From the NCBI RefSeq assembly GCF_003018235.1, contig NZ_CP027437.1: a stretch of DNA of 64,000 bases; one strand, written 5' to 3'. Source of the stretch: Escherichia coli (lineage in GTDB: Bacteria > Pseudomonadota > Gammaproteobacteria > Enterobacterales > Enterobacteriaceae). A program made the position numbers and the translations under genes. Positions 19,447 to 45,970 of this stretch are shown piece by piece. The notes beneath the pieces were generated by a model that was given only the letters and a program-made list of their open reading frames with translations, was not told where the DNA came from and ran no database searches. Position 1 is the first letter of the stretch, and the number at the start of each line of letters is the position of its first letter.

Positions 19447-20517
19447 ATGCAAAAAGACGCGCTGAATAACGTACATATTACCGACGAACAGGTTTTAATG
19501 ACTCCGGAACAACTGAAGGCCGCTTTTCCATTGAGCCTGCAACAAGAAGCCCAGATTGCTGACTCGCGTAAAACCATTTCAGATATTATCGCCGGGCGCG
19601 ATCCTCGTCTGTTGGTAGTATGTGGTCCTTGTTCCATTCATGATCCGGAAACTGCTCTGGAATATGCTCGTCGATTTAAAGCCCTTGCCGCAGAGGTCAG
19701 CGATAGCCTCTATCTGGTAATGCGCGTCTATTTTGAAAAACCCCGTACCACTGTCGGCTGGAAAGGGTTAATTAACGATCCCCATATGGATGGCTCTTTT
19801 GATGTAGAAGCCGGGCTGCAGATCGCGCGTAAATTGCTGCTTGAGCTGGTGAATATGGGACTGCCACTGGCGACGGAAGCGTTAGATCCGAATAGCCCGC
19901 AATACCTGGGCGATCTGTTTAGCTGGTCAGCCATTGGTGCTCGTACAACGGAATCGCAAACTCACCGTGAAATGGCCTCCGGGCTTTCCATGCCGGTTGG
20001 TTTTAAAAACGGCACCGACGGCAGTCTGGCAACAGCAATTAACGCTATGCGCGCCGCCGCCCAGCCGCACCGTTTTGTTGGCATTAACCAGGCAGGGCAG
20101 GTGGCGTTGCTACAAACTCAGGGGAATCCGGATGGGCATGTGATCCTGCGCGGTGGTAAAGCGCCGAACTATAGCCCTGCGGATGTTGCGCAATGTGAAA
20201 AAGAGATGGAACAGGCGGGACTGCGCCCGTCTCTGATGGTAGATTGCAGCCACGGTAATTCCAATAAAGATTATCGCCGTCAGCCTGCGGTGGCAGAATC
20301 CGTGGTTGCTCAAATCAAAGATGGCAATCGCTCAATTATTGGTCTGATGATCGAAAGTAATATCCACGAGGGCAATCAGTCTTCCGAGCAACCGCGCAGT
20401 GAAATGAAATACGGTGTATCCGTAACCGATGCCTGCATTAGTTGGGAAATGACCGATGCCTTGCTGCGTGAAATTCATCAGGATCTGAACGGGCAGCTGA
20501 CGGCTCGCGTGGCTTAA
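19447..20517 (+). CDS. aroF: DAHP synthase, Tyr-sensitive
   Basis: 356 aa from [25 protein letters not shown]... Confidence 0.95.
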
Positions 20518-20527
20518 GAGGTTTATT

Positions 20528-21649
20528 ATGGTTGCTGAATTGACCGCATTACGCGATCAAATTGATGAAGTCGATAAAGCGCTGCTGAATTTATTAGCGA
20601 AGCGTCTGGAACTGGTTGCTGAAGTGGGAGAGGTGAAAAGCCGCTTTGGACTGCCTATTTATGTTCCGGAGCGAGAGGCATCTATGCTGGCCTCGCGTCG
20701 TGCAGAGGCGGAAGCTCTGGGTGTACCGCCAGATCTGATTGAGGATGTTTTGCGTCGGGTGATGCGTGAATCTTACTCCAGTGAAAACGACAAAGGATTT
20801 AAAACGCTTTGTCCGTCACTGCGTCCGGTGGTTATCGTCGGTGGTGGCGGTCAGATGGGACGTCTGTTCGAGAAGATGCTGGCACTCTCGGGTTATCAGG
20901 TGCGGATTCTGGAGCAACATGACTGGGATCGAGCGGCTGATATTGTTGCCGATGCCGGAATGGTGATTGTTAGTGTGCCCATCCACGTTACTGAACAAGT
21001 TATTGGCAAATTACCGCCTTTACCGAAAGATTGTATTCTGGTTGATCTGGCATCGGTGAAAAATGGACCATTACAGGCCATGCTGGCGGCGCATGATGGT
21101 CCGGTGCTGGGGTTACACCCGATGTTCGGCCCGGACAGCGGTAGCCTGGCAAAGCAAGTTGTGGTCTGGTGTGATGGACGTAAGCCGGAAGCATACCAAT
21201 GGTTTCTGGAGCAAATTCAGGTCTGGGGCGCTCGGCTGCATCGTATTAGCGCCGTCGAGCACGATCAGAATATGGCGTTTATTCAGGCTCTGCGCCACTT
21301 TGCTACTTTTGCTTATGGGCTGCACCTGGCAGAAGAAAATGTTCAGCTTGAGCAACTTCTGGCACTTTCTTCGCCGATTTACCGCCTTGAGCTGGCGATG
21401 GTCGGGCGACTGTTTGCTCAGGATCCGCAGCTTTATGCCGACATCATTATGTCGTCAGAGCGTAATCTGGCGTTGATCAAACGTTATTATAAGCGTTTCG
21501 GCGAGGCGATTGAGTTGCTGGAGCAGGGCGATAAGCAGGCGTTTATTGACAGTTTCCGCAAGGTGGAGCACTGGTTCGGCGATTACGCACAGCGTTTTCA
21601 GAGTGAAAGCCGCGTGTTATTGCGTCAGGCGAATGACAGTCGCCAGTAA
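20528..21649 (+). CDS. tyrA: Chorismate mutase / prephenate dehydrogenase (T-protein)
   Basis: 373 aa [34 protein letters not shown]... Confidence 0.95.
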
Positions 21650-25485: not shown

Positions 25486-26281
25486 ACACAGGAAAGTTAT
25501 GGGCTTGTGTGATTCAGAAAGTGTGAGGTTACGTGCAAAATGGCCAGACATGTAAAAAAGAACTTGAATGCAGTGTCGGCATGGTGGTATTTTTCATCTG
25601 CTGCCACAGTGCTGGCAGTCGGGAATACCACCCCGTATGTGTCAACGGCGACATCAGACGCCGCAAGCGTCTTTTTTGTTGTCGTAACCTTATACGCCAT
25701 GAAGCTCCATTTTATGGTGCGGTGTTATCCATTAAGAGCCGTTGCAAGCGCCTCTACCGGAAGGGGCTGGATAACATCCACCACCATGTCAATGGTAGCT
25801 CAGGCGGGGCCGACTTCGGTCGGGCCGGTTTCCGTTGGCACCGGTAGTGGTATCCCCGTCTGGGCTATCGCCAGTGAGCATACCACCTCCTGCGATAGCA
25901 GTATGTTATGTCAACGGAGGCTGCCTGAATGGCTACAATCCCAACCCAAAAGCGCCCAAAATCCGCGCTCCCCCAGCTCAGCAGTGACTGTCGTCGCCGG
26001 ATACACCGTGTGCAGATGGTTACGCTCCATTATTACATTCAGTGTCTCGCTGATAATCCGTGTTCAGTTGATTTTTGTTTTCCGTACTTATTGTCTTACA
26101 TCCACGATGATATTAAGGCTATAGATAATGAGTTAATTTCTCTTGGCCTGTTTGAACAGGCGATGGGAAAGAAAAAACGACGATAGTTTTCATCGTTATT
26201 AATTAACGTTGTCAGGAAGTATTAAACACACCGCTCACGCGGCGGGAATCTTACATCTTAAATATCTGACGAGGTGGAAAC

Positions 26282-31435: not shown

Positions 31436-32065
31436 ATGGCTGAATTAACCAAAGAATGGCTAAAAAACATGATTACCGGAATTGAGTCGGTAATAGACGA
31501 TAAATCGTTTGTATGTGATGAAATAGTATTCAAAATAGGTGAGGTTAAAAACATACTTACCGCATTTAAAGTCGCGCTGGCATCGCTGGAAGCAGAGCCG
31601 GTGGCTGAGATTAGAGCGCACTACCCATTAGGGATTAACGGCGGTAAACAAAAGTTCGTCCAGGCCATTGGAGATCTTCCTGACTTTGGCGGACATCTGT
31701 ACGCCGCTCCGCCAGCGCCTGTAGTGCCGGATGAGGGGCGCGACAAGTTTGAAGCAATTATCAGGTTTCATGTCGGTGATGAAAACCATGAAACATTATT
31801 GCTGCGGGCCAACGAAGGGATGAATTACCGGGACCCAAATGTTGATTTTGCATGGATATTCTGGAAGTCCAGTCGTGAGCATCTGCTTCGGAATAATGAC
31901 GGCAGTCTGCCAGAATCGGGTCATCAGGTACGCGGATTAACACTGCTGGTTAAGCGACTGGCCAGTTCATTAAAAAGCGTCAATAAATCCAGCAAGCTGC
32001 CTGATAAGGCGCTGGAGTATCTGAAGCAGAACGGACTGATAAGCGTGGAGGATATTTTACGATGA
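31436..32065 (+). CDS. Hypothetical protein (209 aa)
   Basis: ORF with SD AGAGAGG; no recognisable motif. Confidence 0.45.
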   Translation: MAELTKEWLKNMITGIESVIDDKSFVCDEIVFKIGEVKNILTAFKVALASLEAEPVAEIRAHYPLGINGGKQKFVQAIGDLPDFGGHLYAAPPAPVVPDEGRDKFEAIIRFHVGDENHETLLLRANEGMNYRDPNVDFAWIFWKSSREHLLRNNDGSLPESGHQVRGLTLLVKRLASSLKSVNKSSKLPDKALEYLKQNGLISVEDILR

Positions 32066-32149
32066 CCTGGCCTGAAGCATTCACCACGGCAGGAATTGCG
32101 ATGGCGGTGGCACTGGTTGTGTATTCTATTTGTCGTTGGGGGTAAACAC

Positions 32150-32401: not shown

Positions 32402-32894
32402 CCACGGATAAAGAGAACTAAATTTCGTCAGAATTAACAGGAAATAACTGGAACGAAAAATACACCGCTTACGCGGCGGGGTTTCTGCAACCTTAAAACA
32501 GGGTAAGAGAAATGGCAGAGATGATGAACAATAAACTCTTCATAACCAGTCTCTTTAAGTTGACTGGCCGGGAGTAACGACCAGTGGCAATACAAAAAAA
32601 CCGCTTGCCAGCGTTTGTCTGGTCGGGTTACATTTCCCGTGCACCTCATAAAACGGGTGCCGGGATTCTCAACCCGCAGAAGAACAGAGCGCATAACCGC
32701 GCCAGCGGTTTTTTTATGCGTGCCGTATCGTCACACCTTTTTCGCACACGAATTATGGCGGGGCGTACGGGGCCGACTTCGGTCGGGCCGGATCCTCTGT
32801 TCTCCGGTGTTGAGAACCCCGTACGTCTCGCCACCCCGAGATTCTCAACTCTGGATGGTGAGTTATGTCTATCACTGAACAGAGGTTACCCCTT

Positions 32895-39457: not shown

Positions 39458-39534
39458 GCGCCGTTAGCTCAGCTGGACAGAGCAATTGCCTTCTAAGCAA
39501 TCGGTCACTGGTTCGAATCCAGTATGGCGCACCA
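39458..39534 (+). tRNA. tRNA-Arg (anticodon UCU)
   Basis: Manual cloverleaf: acceptor GCGCCGT/ATGGCGC, D-arm GCTC..GAGC, anticodon loop CTTCTAA, T-arm ACTGG-TTCGAAT-CCAGT, CCA end. Confidence 0.85.
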
Positions 39535-39535
39535 T

Positions 39536-39610
39536 GCGGTCATCGTATAATGGCTATTACCTCGGCCTTCCAGGCTGATGATGCGGGTTCGATTCCAGCT
39601 GGCCGCTCCA
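39536..39610 (+). tRNA. tRNA-Gly (anticodon UCC)
   Basis: Manual cloverleaf: acceptor GCGGTCA/TGGCCGC, anticodon loop CTTCCAG, T-loop TTCGATT, CCA end; close to glyT tRNA as I recall it. Confidence 0.8.
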
Positions 39611-39768: not shown

Positions 39769-40321
39769 TATTTTTAGTATTTAGCCAGAGTGGCCCAAAC
39801 AGAAAATAAAGTTACTGTGAAACAGGGGGGCCTAATAAAAATAATCACCACTAAATTCGGGGCTTTAAAAATGCTAAGAACATCACATTTCATTATGCCG
39901 GGTACTGGAGAATAACATGATGTTTTGTTAAAAATGATTTTGCATGGTGAATCCCCCTGTGCGGCGGGGCATAATGACAGATGTTTGGTTGCGTATTGTA
40001 TAGGCAAGTTGCGGATTCTGTCTGGTCATTGCAGAATTCACCGGGAGGCACCCGGCACCATGCAGATAATTGTTTTGTGGATGATAATACCAGCCCCTCT
40101 CCGGAGGGGCTTTCTTATGGGCGAAAAAAAGCCCGGGGAGCCGGGCAATAGCATGAGATATACGTTTTTATAGACGTACAGATTTTAATCAGAATTTATG
40201 GGGCTGCGCAACTGCGTGGCCTTTTTTGTTTTGTGGGCTAAGGTTTTCCCCTTTGATTCGCCATGTGGCTGAACCTGTAGCCCGCCACTGTTCAGACGCA
40301 ATCCCGGCAAGGGGAGGAATA

Positions 40322-43066: not shown

Positions 43067-43102
43067 GTTATCGTGCGCTTCCGGAGAACGGGAGACGGGG
43101 AT

Positions 43103-43318
43103 ATGTACCAGATGGAAAAAATCACAACAGGGGTGTCATACACCACGTCAGCGGCGGGAACGGGATACTGGTTACTGCAGCTGCTGGACAGGGTCTCCCC
43201 GTCCCAGTGGGCGGCGATAGGCGTGCTGGGGAGTCTGCTGTTTGGTCTGCTGACGTACCTGACGAACCTGTATTTTAAAATCAGAGAGGACCGTCGTAAG
43301 GCGGCGCGGGGAGAATAA
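43103..43318 (+). CDS. S: Holin, phage-21 S-type (pinholin-like), dual-start motif
   Basis: [71 protein letters not shown]; two TM segments; Met1 and Met4 starts. Confidence 0.85.
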
Positions 43319-43321
43319 ATA

Positions 43322-43953
43322 ATGAACCATGAAGAAATGAATCAGCGCTTCAGTCGCCTGGAAAATGAAATTGCCGGACTGAATAAAAAACTGTCGGCGC
43401 TGGTGACTTCTGAAGATGAAAAAAAAAACGCCGCGATGAACAGGAGGCGGCGTTTTATGATTATTGCATCAAAGTTGCCCGCAGGACCTTTGCGAATTTT
43501 TTGCAGGAAAAGCTATCACCGACCACATCGTCAGAAAAGTACTCCATTACGGTTGAAAGTGCCGGAGAGGAAGGCAATAAACGTTATTTTATTGCGTCTG
43601 CACCGGATAAAGACGAGGAACCCCGTCGGCCTTTCAGGGTTTCCTATGAAGAGGGGGAGTTCGTCGTTTATGAGAACGGAAAACCTGTCCGGGCATCGCA
43701 TCATCACTGCCTGAAAATTATTGATCTCGCTATTGGATGCCTGAAAGACGAAAACACCAGGGTTATGAAACGCATTGGCCGTTGCATGGGGTATCTGCAG
43801 GTGGCGGCAGAGATTGAAGCACTTGACAGTGGTGCTGACAGGGATACAGCGGTGCGGGAGTTCCTTCTTCGTGATTTCAATACCACGCCCTTTAAAAAAG
43901 TGCCTTATGACTGGATCCAGCCGGGCCTGACTTATCTCAAAGGGCGTATATGA
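43322..43953 (+). CDS. Hypothetical protein interrupted by a frameshift at an A10 tract (43419-43428)
   Basis: Frame 2 (43322-) and frame 1 (-43953) both look coding and would fuse into one ~210-aa protein with one extra A; starts 4 nt after the holin stop. Confidence 0.4.
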
Positions 43954-43995: not shown

Positions 43996-44529
43996 ATGAA
44001 CGCAAAAATCAGATACGGCCTGTCGGCTGCCGTTCTGGCGCTGATTGCCGCAGGGGCTTCTGCGCCAGAAATCCTTGACCAGTTTCTGAATGAAAAAGAA
44101 GGTAATCACACCACGGCATACCGTGATGGTGCGGGTATCTGGACCATCTGCCGTGGTGCCATTCTGGTGGACGGTAAGCCTGTTGTTCCCGGCATGAAGT
44201 TGTCGAGGGAAAAATGCGACCAGGTTAACGCCATCGAACGTGACAGGGCGCTGGCATGGGTGGAGAAAAACATCAAAGTGCCGCTGACCGAACCGCAGAA
44301 AGCGGGGATTGCGTCATTCTGCCCGTACAACATCGGTCCTTCGAAATGCTTCACCTCAACGTTTTACCGGAGACTGAACGCCGGAGACCGTAAGGGGGCA
44401 TGTGCTGAAATCCGTCGGTGGATATATGACGGTGGCAGGGACTGCCGTATCCGCTCAAACAACTGCTACGGTCAGGTATCCCGGCGTGACCAGGAGAGTG
44501 CGCTGGCGTGCTGGGGTATCGACAGATAA
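43996..44529 (+). CDS. R: SAR endolysin (T4-lysozyme-like muramidase)
   Basis: Gly/Ala-rich N-terminal SAR segment GLSAAVLALIAAGASA; catalytic E-x8-D-x5-T (EGNHTTAYRDGAGIWT). Confidence 0.9.
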   Translation: MNAKIRYGLSAAVLALIAAGASAPEILDQFLNEKEGNHTTAYRDGAGIWTICRGAILVDGKPVVPGMKLSREKCDQVNAIERDRALAWVEKNIKVPLTEPQKAGIASFCPYNIGPSKCFTSTFYRRLNAGDRKGACAEIRRWIYDGGRDCRIRSNNCYGQVSRRDQESALACWGIDR

Positions 44530-44864
44530 GCAGAATATTTTGCTGAAAAATGAGATTTTCCCACGCGTCCGGAAAACACAAAATCCTTCATAAAGGTATT
44601 TCAGTAGTGAATAAAAGTAAAAACCCCGATTGCGCTAACAGTCGGGGTTTTGTGTTTCTGACCTTGAATAAGGCAAGGGAGAAATTATCAGGTAGGGAGG
44701 TGCTTTCCCTGTGAGGAAGTATAAAAGATTCTTTCTGAGGTTGTCCATTATGAAAGGCATTGAAGTGGAGACGCCAGCCAGTCTGGATTTAACAAGAGCA
44801 GCAGCCTTTGCCATTCGTATTGTGGCAATTGCCATACTGGTCTGGGCAATCCGCTGGTGGTGAT

Positions 44865-45332
44865 ATGAACCGTGTTCTGTATGTGTTGATTATTGTCCTG
44901 CTGGTGGCCTGCGGTGCGCTGTGGCTGGCAACAGACCATTACCGCGATAATGCCATCACTTACAAAGCGCAGCGCGATAAAAAAGTCAGAGAACTGAAGC
45001 TGGCTGACGCCACCATTACTGACATGCAGCAGCGCCAGCGTGATGTTGCTGCACTCGATGCAAAATACACAAAGGAGTTAGCCGATGCGAGAGCTGAAAA
45101 TGAAACTCTGCGCGCTGATGTTGCTGCTGGTCGTAAGCGCCTGCGTGTCAACGCCACCTGTGTGTCCGCCACAGACAAAGCCACCGGCACCGCCCGCGTG
45201 GGTAATGCTGCCCGCCCCAGACTGGCAGACGCCGCTCAACGGTATTATTTCACCCTCAGAGAGCGGCTGATGACGATGCAGAAGCAACTGGAAGGGGCAC
45301 AGGAATATATCAGGACGCAATGCGTGAAATAG
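44865..45332 (+). CDS. Rz: i-spanin Rz
   Basis: N-terminal TM then coiled coil; close to lambda Rz as I recall ([16 protein letters not shown]..). Confidence 0.85.
45085..45270 (+). CDS. Rz1: o-spanin Rz1 lipoprotein, embedded in Rz in another frame
   Basis: AAGGAG SD; lipobox LLLVVSAC; Pro-rich; ends ...[10 protein letters not shown] like lambda Rz1. Confidence 0.85.
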
Positions 45333-45764
45333 GTTTTCTCAGTGCGTTGTATCGTCGCCGTATTCCCGCATTAACAGAGACCGCAGCCCGACGGGGAGAC
45401 TCCTCTGCGCGAGTGTGCGGGAATAATCAGAAACGATGCACACCGGGTTTTGCCGCGTAAACAGGACGCGGACTGCACCCACATGGTCGCCTGTCCGGTG
45501 CGATGGTGGAAGAAACCGGAACACTCAGTACTCACCTGGAATAAAAAAAGCCGCAGGTGGTATGCGGCATAAAATGGCACGAATTAGTGGATGTTTCTTT
45601 TTTCGTTTGTATTTTTATCTGATTTCCTGAGGTGTAATCAATTCGAAAAATACGTGAGAACAGAGCGTGTATTTTCGACCTTTTTTTGCTGGAAGAAACC
45701 TGATGTAAACACAATTGATAATTATTATCATTTGTGGGGTCCTCCTGGCGGGGTTGGCCTGTCC

Positions 45765-45785
45765 ACGGGGCGGGTCGGCGCGGAA
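45765..45785. other. Putative cosN (cohesive-end site)
   Basis: ACGGGGCGGGTCGGCGCGG resembles lambda cosN ACGGGGCGGCGACCTCGCGG; about 200 bp upstream of the small terminase start, as in lambda. Confidence 0.35.
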
Positions 45786-45970
45786 AAAGGCGCATTTTTG
45801 TGATTTTATCGTCATCATCATCATGTGTTTAACGTATTGATTTTAAGTGAATTCATCCTGAAAAGATGATGATTGTGGTTAATTTTTGTTCGACATCTTT
45901 GTGTGGCGCTGTTTCTTTACAAAAAAAACAGAGTCACTTCTGTTTTGCGGTATTTGTGGAGGAGGAATAA

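Follow-up and report, generated by a model that had tools for sequence, protein, structure and literature searches.

What, if anything, is encoded by a 37-codon open reading frame (ORF) wedged between the endolysin and spanin genes of a lambdoid prophage? The prophage lies in a stretch of 64,000 nucleotides (nt) of the Escherichia coli contig NZ_CP027437.1 (RefSeq assembly GCF_003018235.1), hereafter the window. The frame, which we call the micro-ORF, occupies plus-strand positions 44750-44863 (ATG at 44750, TGA at 44861-44863) in the 335-nt gap (44530-44864) between the endolysin gene R (43996-44529, plus strand; phage lysozyme, PF00959, E 3e-25; phrog_7) and the i-spanin gene Rz (44865-45332, plus strand; PF03245, E 2e-49). 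An earlier model-made reading of the letters alone, hereafter the sequence-only reading, had picked out this frame and placed it 1 nt before Rz; the sequence and its Pfam-identified neighbours agree, with a single base parting the TGA of the micro-ORF from the Rz ATG at 44865. Lambdoid lysis is usually pictured as the work of a holin, an endolysin and a spanin, and the locus raises the question of whether a further membrane protein belongs among them. We find that the micro-ORF is a genuine conserved gene, that it travels with its flanks as a portable module, and that its product is predicted to be a small membrane protein. The role we favour for it, with a probability of roughly 0.5, is that of a late-expressed inner-membrane accessory lysis factor of lambdoid (pro)phages.

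The micro-ORF is a conserved coding gene

Comparisons drew on 80 loci from a scan of IMG/VR, on 85 recovered relatives in which the reading frame was checked, and on 98 fetched loci in which the junction with the next gene was read. Across the 37-codon core, alignment with group-2 relatives gives ~20.5 synonymous differences over 27 sites (proportion of synonymous differences, pS, ~0.75) against 5.5 non-synonymous differences over 84 sites (pN 0.066), and variable sites at third, first and second codon positions number 27, 7 and 0. Among the six frames at the locus, pN/pS is lowest in the plus-strand frame of the micro-ORF (0.05-0.09); it is 0.17-0.32 in the antisense frame with the same wobble positions and at least 0.9 in the remaining frames. 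An ORF on the antisense strand (44635-44835) was considered as the true gene and rejected: its pN/pS is 2-6 times higher, its start and end are not conserved, and its signal mirrors that of the plus-strand frame because the two have wobble positions in common. The frame of the micro-ORF itself is intact in 85 of 85 recovered relatives, which is how the conservation check proposed by the sequence-only reading turned out. Its caution that this frame and a second one, at 32062-32145, may be chance ORFs can be dropped, since the substitution patterns in both are those of purifying selection.

The family is common and largely anonymous. Of 5426 complete E. coli genomes, 669 (~12%) have a 341-bp R-Rz gap at ~88% identity, so that roughly one genome in eight carries the family, Shiga-toxin-producing strains and Stx-phage-like prophages included. 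Among 1.84 billion proteins it comprises 33 representatives at 50% identity, 20-87 amino acids (aa) long except for one weak, repetitive match of 680 aa, and the sources name its members only 'hypothetical' or 'putative transmembrane protein'. The 37-aa form is annotated by PGAP as a hypothetical protein (WP_033553196.1 and WP_000675931.1), and phage GER2 annotates it too. This form matches phrog_4493 (E 1.1e-15, profile positions 14-54 of 56), while a homologue from PhiR12_1 matches PHROG 4493, 1115 and 3246, all three; judged by these profile matches, the family is that of PHROG 4493/1115/3246, phage proteins with no assigned function. Searches of Pfam, NCBIfam, PADLOC and PDB sequences with the micro-ORF returned no match, and the peptide strings and WP accessions turned up nowhere in a literature search. 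The family is under very strong purifying selection, yet it has neither a name nor a Pfam entry.

How far the gene extends is a separate matter. The sequence-only reading gave it 37 aa, and an ORF of that length is indeed there; its start, however, is probably the GTG at 44711, which would make the product a 50-aa protein (44711-44863, plus strand) and the RefSeq start 13 codons too short, an annotation worth correcting. An in-frame TAG at 44693 bounds the open frame upstream of this GTG, and a Shine-Dalgarno (SD) sequence, GGGAGGTG, can be read at 44695-44702. The 13 added residues, RKYKRFFLRLSI, are basic and are kept as protein in all six divergent lineages (L006, L095, L096, L094 and group 2 among them), even though full-length identity between these lineages is 40-53%. 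The extension reads EKYKRILLRLT in PhiR12_1 (ATG start), MNYKRFFVRLN in L095 (ATG start), NYIRILLRLSV in L096 (GTG start) and MTVYRKTFRLRIS in L094 (ATG start); the comparisons contain synonymous first-position changes (AGA/CGA, CTG/TTG), and the homologous start position holds GTG, ATG or TTG. Furthermore, the phrog_4493 profile covers the extension, whose inclusion lifts the score from 58 to 82 bits (the 57-aa group-2 form gives 82 bits over positions 2-54), and RefSeq annotates an ATG-started 60-aa homologue at full length.

The surroundings of this start also have a history. In the predicted fold of the plus strand, GGGAGGTG pairs with UUUCCCU directly before the GTG, an arrangement that recalls the sdi element of lambda. 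Relative to PhiR12_1, the lineage of the window carries an insertion of ~23 nt (44681-44702) between an ancestral SD, AAGGGAGAA, and the start codon; this insertion brings in a second SD (GGGAGG), the one paired with UUUCCCU in the predicted mRNA fold. Downstream, the ATG at 44750 may act as a second start, giving two forms of the protein, since the internal methionine and its GAGG are conserved everywhere: the methionine across all lineages, and the GAGG (44738-44741, plus strand, 8 nt before the ATG) inside conserved L-R-L codons (CTG AGG TTG), the AGG of which is retained in the window, L065, L006 and L096.

The product is predicted to be a tail-anchored small membrane protein of ~50 aa. 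An AlphaFold2 (AF2) model of the 50-aa form, made from a 12-sequence alignment, has a helix at residues 3-14, coil at 15-24 and a second helix at 25-49, with predicted local distance difference test (pLDDT) values above 90 over the last 20 residues, which form the transmembrane (TM) helix. The Ala-rich C-terminal segment has a 19-residue Kyte-Doolittle maximum of 2.12, enough to be called a TM segment, and together with the modelled helix this upholds the single TM span seen by the sequence-only reading. The N-terminal extension (residues 1-13; hydrophobic moment 0.84, net charge +5) is predicted to form a cationic and strongly amphipathic helix. Conservation is best in an acidic linker, M-x-x-G-(L/I)-E-x-x-(A/T)-P, whose proline is invariant; a conserved AFAI(R/K) motif lies inside the predicted TM helix, and the protein ends in R-W-W.

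A portable module and a candidate antisense RNA

The micro-ORF keeps company with two fixed flanks, a hairpin upstream and a TGG-TGG-TGA-n-ATG junction downstream, and the three travel together as a portable module. The hairpin (44620-44651, picked up by a terminator scan) is GC-rich, with 13 bp, is preceded by an A-run and followed by a T-run, and has the look of an intrinsic terminator that would serve both directions. The window holds no second copy, with 0 chance matches expected, and an equivalent stands 33-86 nt 5' of the micro-ORF in every lineage irrespective of the upstream neighbour, which may be lysozyme R, an endolysin (GH108 or M15), phrog_33497, a capsid gene or a gene of the tail-fibre region. 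Compensatory double changes occur in 6 of 12 pairs, and the T-run on the minus strand is at least equal in quality to that on the plus strand. At the other end, the junction CGC TGG TGG TGA T ATG (44852-44867, plus strand), made up of the R-W-W codons, the stop, one base and the Rz start, is also unique in the window, and TGGTGGTRAnATG is found in 87 of the 98 fetched loci, both types of downstream partner included. Because GGTGGTGA within this junction resembles an SD sequence for the next gene, here Rz, the gene 3' of the micro-ORF is probably translationally coupled to it. No plus-strand promoter was found between hairpin and micro-ORF by a consensus scan for sigma-70-like sites, which is a weak test.

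Other small genes use the same arrangement. In TL-2011c the R-Rz gap is taken, again behind the same hairpin, by an unrelated family of TM micro-ORFs, phrog_6632 (MAEKLSTWKYILIWLVFVIMASGYFIGQIRWW); its member there (L005 2750-2845, unannotated) ends in RWW-stop one base before Rz, and the family recurs at L094 3805-3903. Since this unrelated family shares the ending, RWW may in part reflect the junction rather than the protein. In L094 (2950-3910) a lambda-E-type capsid gene is followed by a run of small TM ORFs, the micro-ORF at their head; a near-identical GC-rich hairpin (AACGCCCCGGCAG...CTGCCGGGGCGTT) stands upstream of it, the same hairpin recurs downstream, and the array looks like the product of repeated insertion of hairpin and micro-gene units.

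Could the micro-ORF then be mere cargo, a lysogenic-conversion 'moron' or filler that encodes a non-lysis membrane protein in a recombination-tolerant gap, with its RWW-stop kept as the ribosome-binding site of the next gene? The R-Rz gap is indeed a swap site, holding ant in 933W, two small TM ORFs in PhiR12_1 and phrog_6632 in TL-2011c, and both the L094 array of hairpin and small-ORF units behind a capsid gene and the SD-like character of GGTGGTGA agree with such a view. The layout, however, is the reverse of that of a classical moron: the terminator-like hairpin precedes the gene, no such hairpin separates the ORF from Rz, and the plus-strand scan found no promoter. Purifying selection is strong over the whole peptide, not just at its 3' end, and 80 of 80 sampled relatives lie in lysis cassettes, all of which makes the cargo explanation improbable in our judgement.

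The opposite strand offers a less easily dismissed alternative. A putative sigma-70 promoter (TGGACA-18-TATACT; 44718-44747, minus strand, promoter scan) lies inside codons 3-13 of the micro-ORF, and because this promoter-like site is paired with a terminator, we infer a hypothetical cis-antisense RNA of ~100 nt (44608-44711, minus strand) that would begin in the start-codon region, pass over both SD-like sites and end at the hairpin. In a hok/sok- or sar-like module, such an RNA would silence a small hydrophobic protein in lysogens and, by coupling, the next gene as well (as with mok for hok); the peptide would be a membrane toxin or a gatekeeper. This arrangement can coexist with a role as accessory lysis factor.

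The promoter-like site occurs at homologous codons in the window, L065, L006 (TAGTCA/TATACT) and L096 (CCGACA/TATAAT), four lineages of differing sequence in which it keeps 9-10 of 12 consensus matches and an 18-nt spacer. Three of four 500-nt scans made on relatives have it as their sole match (0.4-0.8 expected), and it is one of two matches in a 3-kb scan of the window (2.8 expected). Two scans gave no match, however, the site was not found in L095 or L094, and protein constraint may explain its elements, since they are built from conserved codons (K-Y-K, L-S-I). Third positions of the N-terminal extension show roughly a third of the diversity of those in the core (0.10 vs 0.33), and for the Tyr that supplies the -10 element all 6 lineages use TAT, although this argument for extra constraint rests on ~7 synonymous sites. 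The hypothetical antisense RNA has a predicted fold of -29.1 kcal/mol (z = -3.8), and the covarying hairpin that accompanies the micro-ORF everywhere, with its good minus-strand T-run, would suit it as a terminator.

The protein itself resembles a type I toxin in being small (50 aa, within the <60 aa range), hydrophobic and cationic, and a true hokW/sokW pair exists in related phages. The likeness to hok/mok/sok extends to a small hydrophobic protein, a candidate antisense promoter in the 5' coding region, an upstream terminator-like hairpin and probable coupling to the next frame; it stops at Hok homology, a Sok match in Rfam and a dedicated promoter for the toxin mRNA, none of which was found here (the last by the consensus scan only). 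Antisense geometry plus coupling recalls the sar/ant pair of P22 as well as hok/mok/sok. Nothing in the R-Rz gap reaches Rfam gathering thresholds. The sar family (RF00262) scores 31 bits on the minus strand at 44616-44691, below its gathering threshold of 43, and gave no match at E <= 0.01 in five related loci; identity with sar was rejected, as the match depends on the loop sequence of the window itself and is unseen in relatives, 933W (with ant in the gap) included, and we treat it as chance. The small RNAs AgvB, AsxR and Pas were likewise considered for this gap and rejected, being located upstream of the holin. Weighing both sides, we hold antisense silencing to be a tentative possibility, and the locus to offer a compact candidate for an antisense and coupling circuit.

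Candidate role in lysis

One argument for an accessory lysis factor is the company the gene keeps. All 80 IMG/VR loci are lysis cassettes: 52 consist of lysozyme R, the micro-ORF and Rz, and 28, in which 1.5 kb of flank contains no Rz, of a GH108 or M15 endolysin, the micro-ORF and a 60-aa lipoprotein (phrog_7528). In the latter the lipoprotein begins one base after the micro-ORF, and the order is endolysin, micro-ORF, lipoprotein and bor, which puts micro-ORF and lipoprotein in the slot of Rz/Rz1. A lysozyme gene with a hydrophobic N-terminal segment follows in L095, its start overlapped by the micro-ORF. The micro-ORF runs in the same direction as the late operon, is joined to envelope genes and had no promoter of its own in the scan. 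The suggestion of the sequence-only reading that the peptide may be lysis-related agrees with this context; no homology points to its more specific proposals of a timing or a depolarising role.

In the mechanism we favour, the micro-ORF would be read from a Q-antiterminated late transcript that passes the upstream terminator hairpin. Translation would begin at GTG 44711 and possibly also at ATG 44750, yielding 50-aa and 37-aa isoforms in the manner of the dual-start motifs of holins, and the joining of stop and start would couple translation of Rz to that of the micro-ORF. Once inserted in the inner membrane, the micro-protein would assist lysis either at the step of holin action and endolysin release or at the spanin step.

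Small membrane proteins beyond the usual three components can be essential, as small TM accessory proteins of two phages, Lcc6 of LambdaSo (bioRxiv 10.1101/2024.01.23.576932) and gp25 of Mu (PMC9239132), are experimentally required for lysis. Lcc6 is a 65-aa single-TM protein of a lambda-like Shewanella phage with a pinholin, an endolysin of signal-anchor-release (SAR) type and Rz-Rz1; it is needed for lysis at holin level and is non-toxic alone, and it shows that accessory factors of this kind exist (bioRxiv 10.1101/2024.01.23.576932). It differs in having an N-terminal TM helix with a cytoplasmic tail and in being encoded near xis/int, outside the lysis cassette; we liken the two by description and claim no homology. 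The Mu releasin gp25 (DUF2730) is likewise a membrane-tethered accessory, one that promotes release of SAR endolysins (PMC9239132), but it has 99 aa, an N-terminal TM helix and an anionic cytoplasmic domain of 73 aa. The micro-protein is predicted to be built the other way round, its N-terminus cationic and its TM helix C-terminal; its Pfam search gave no match to DUF2730 (PF10805), and the micro-ORF occurs with non-SAR endolysins too.

Holins and antiholins provide a closer parallel in gene structure. Like S105/S107 of lambda and S68/S71 of phage 21, the micro-ORF would encode a small inner-membrane protein in a lambdoid lysis cassette from what may be two conserved in-frame starts, with a longer form that adds positive charge at the N-terminus. 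Unlike them, with their 2-3 TM helices and extensions of 2-3 residues, it would have one TM helix and an extension of 13 residues at +5, and the window already holds a canonical S21-type holin (43073-43318). A single C-terminal TM helix in 50 aa also falls short of holin topology, which calls for at least two TM helices (classes I and II) or one with a large periplasmic domain (class III), and no holin match was found at E <= 1 in Pfam, PHROG or NCBIfam.

Several findings weigh against an accessory lysis role. Searches of Pfam, PHROG, NCBIfam and PDB revealed no homology to holin, antiholin, releasin or spanin families. The link to lysis is not absolute, since in L094 the micro-ORF follows a capsid gene at the head of the array of small TM ORFs and in L096 its context is ambiguous. 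R and Rz abut, with no homologue between them, in lambda, phage 21 and the K-12 cryptic prophages DLP12 and Qin, so that the micro-ORF is not essential for lysis generally. It accompanies both SAR-type and cytoplasmic endolysins, which makes a role specific to SAR release unlikely. An Arg lies inside the TM segment, and the sequence leaves the orientation of the protein undecided. Finally, the peptide is absent from the small-gene supplements of ribosome profiling (Ribo-seq) in strain Sakai.

The 28 lipoprotein cassettes raise a further alternative, in which the micro-protein is a spanin-associated partner, an inner-membrane component that works with downstream genes for outer-membrane disruption. 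In cassettes that lack Rz it would serve the lipoprotein as a minimal i-spanin-like partner; in the window it would be an accessory of Rz/Rz1. The 60-aa lipoprotein is the o-spanin of phage phiP27 in SpaninDB (Kongari et al., 2018; PMC6139136, supplement), and in these 28 of 80 loci the micro-ORF stands one base 5' of it, with no Rz in reach, just as it stands one base 5' of Rz/Rz1 in the window. The position is thus that of an i-spanin subunit, but the build is not: Rz has an N-terminal TM helix followed by a periplasmic coiled coil, whereas the TM helix of the micro-protein is C-terminal, with no periplasmic domain that could reach the outer membrane and no match to the Rz-type profile PF03245, and in the window it coexists with a complete Rz/Rz1. 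Translocation of its cationic N-terminus is unlikely, phiP27 has the lipoprotein and no micro-ORF, and other members of the family precede a lysozyme gene or small TM ORFs. We therefore think a spanin partner unlikely.

The entry for phiP27 deserves a remark of its own. The 'i-spanin' that SpaninDB lists for this phage was considered as a possible micro-ORF and rejected, phiP27 being without any. The listed ORF has 64 aa and a TTG start (L097 3170-3364; phiP27 20348-20542), and a 90-aa ORF (L097 3154-3426) overlaps it on the opposite strand; the listing looks doubtful. In related cassettes it is the micro-ORF, not that i-spanin ORF, that lies directly 5' of the o-spanin-like lipoprotein.

A more elaborate proposal links three parts, a two-start switch, an antisense RNA and a gated next gene, into one so far unrecognised control point of lambdoid lysis. 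The 50-aa form would be held with its N-terminus inside by the amphipathic +5 extension, the acidic N-tail of the 37-aa form would be able to flip outward, and as a pair they would form an analogue, with one helix, of the holin/antiholin switch. In lysogens the ribosome-binding region would be blocked by an antisense RNA in the style of hok/sok that ends at the conserved bidirectional terminator, and the fused stop and start (TGG TGG TGA n ATG) would gate translation of the spanin or of another envelope gene. That all three operate together strikes us as a long shot.

If the accessory lysis role is true, the micro-protein would add a component to the pathway that controls release of phage and hence of Shiga toxin. 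If it proves to have no lysis phenotype, it is simply one more conserved small membrane protein of phages.

The second micro-ORF and the surrounding prophage

The sequence-only reading had likened the micro-ORF to a second one in the early region of the prophage. This frame encodes 27 aa, MTWPEAFTTAGIAMAVALVVYSICRWG (32062-32145 including the stop, plus strand), and, as that reading had it, overlaps the stop of the ORF that begins at 31436: its ATG and the TGA of that ORF share the sequence ATGA, with GGAGG 9 nt upstream. The likeness between the two peptides did not survive comparison. BLASTP gives no alignment even at E <= 100, so that homology between them is rejected; PHROG matches differ or are lacking, and what the two share, a TM segment followed by R-W, is generic.

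The second micro-ORF is nevertheless a real, conserved and portable small gene of a separate family. It is conserved though unannotated in 933W, right after L0139 and beside hokW/sokW, and in ArgO145. The virulent Vequintavirinae phage Av-05 has it too, and comparison with this phage gives pS 0.65 and pN 0.098. Beyond the window, its copies were placed at L007 701-787, L008 772-855 and L009 701-784. Its ATG overlaps the stop of whichever gene precedes it, and in temperate phages it adjoins genes of the early region. A grouping of the 27-aa peptide with DUF551 in a protein collection was set aside as an apparent clustering artefact, the peptide being absent from the DUF551 sequences.

The host chromosome in the window is that of E. 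coli, with ypjA at 99% identity and a transfer-messenger RNA (tmRNA) gene at 4756-5118. The lysis cassette opens with a phage 21 S-type (pin)holin (43073-43318, plus strand; PF04971, E 3e-33). Between it and the endolysin lies a phrog_1085 gene (43322-43953) in two overlapping frames, of which 43322-43714 matches the middle and 43501-43953 the C-terminal part of the profile; the split gene is probably a frameshifted pseudogene, and relatives carry at this position either an intact gene of ~185 aa or a DUF1327 gene. The endolysin R itself has an Ala/Gly-rich hydrophobic N-terminal segment, MNAKIRYGLSAAVLALIAAGASAP, which is SAR-like and suggests that the enzyme has SAR character. The o-spanin gene Rz1 is embedded in Rz (45085-45270, plus strand; PF06085, E 1e-18), and phrog_13 and phrog_3198 correspond to Rz/Rz1.

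Downstream, the ~630 nt from Rz to DUF1441 and the terminase (45340-45970; terminase from 46444) hold no convincing ORF, where relatives have bor or other genes; this segment contains AT-rich repeats and a terminator-like hairpin on the minus strand (45568..45550). Elsewhere in the window, Rfam matches comprise two C4-type antisense RNAs, an isrK-like RNA, two tRNAs and STnc100, at 25788-25875, 32641-32715, 32751-32838, 39458-39607 and 39912-40122. Together they make up an antQ/isrK arrangement like that of Gifsy-1, here in a prophage of E. coli, and a second region for immunity or ant control is suggested by the first C4 copy.

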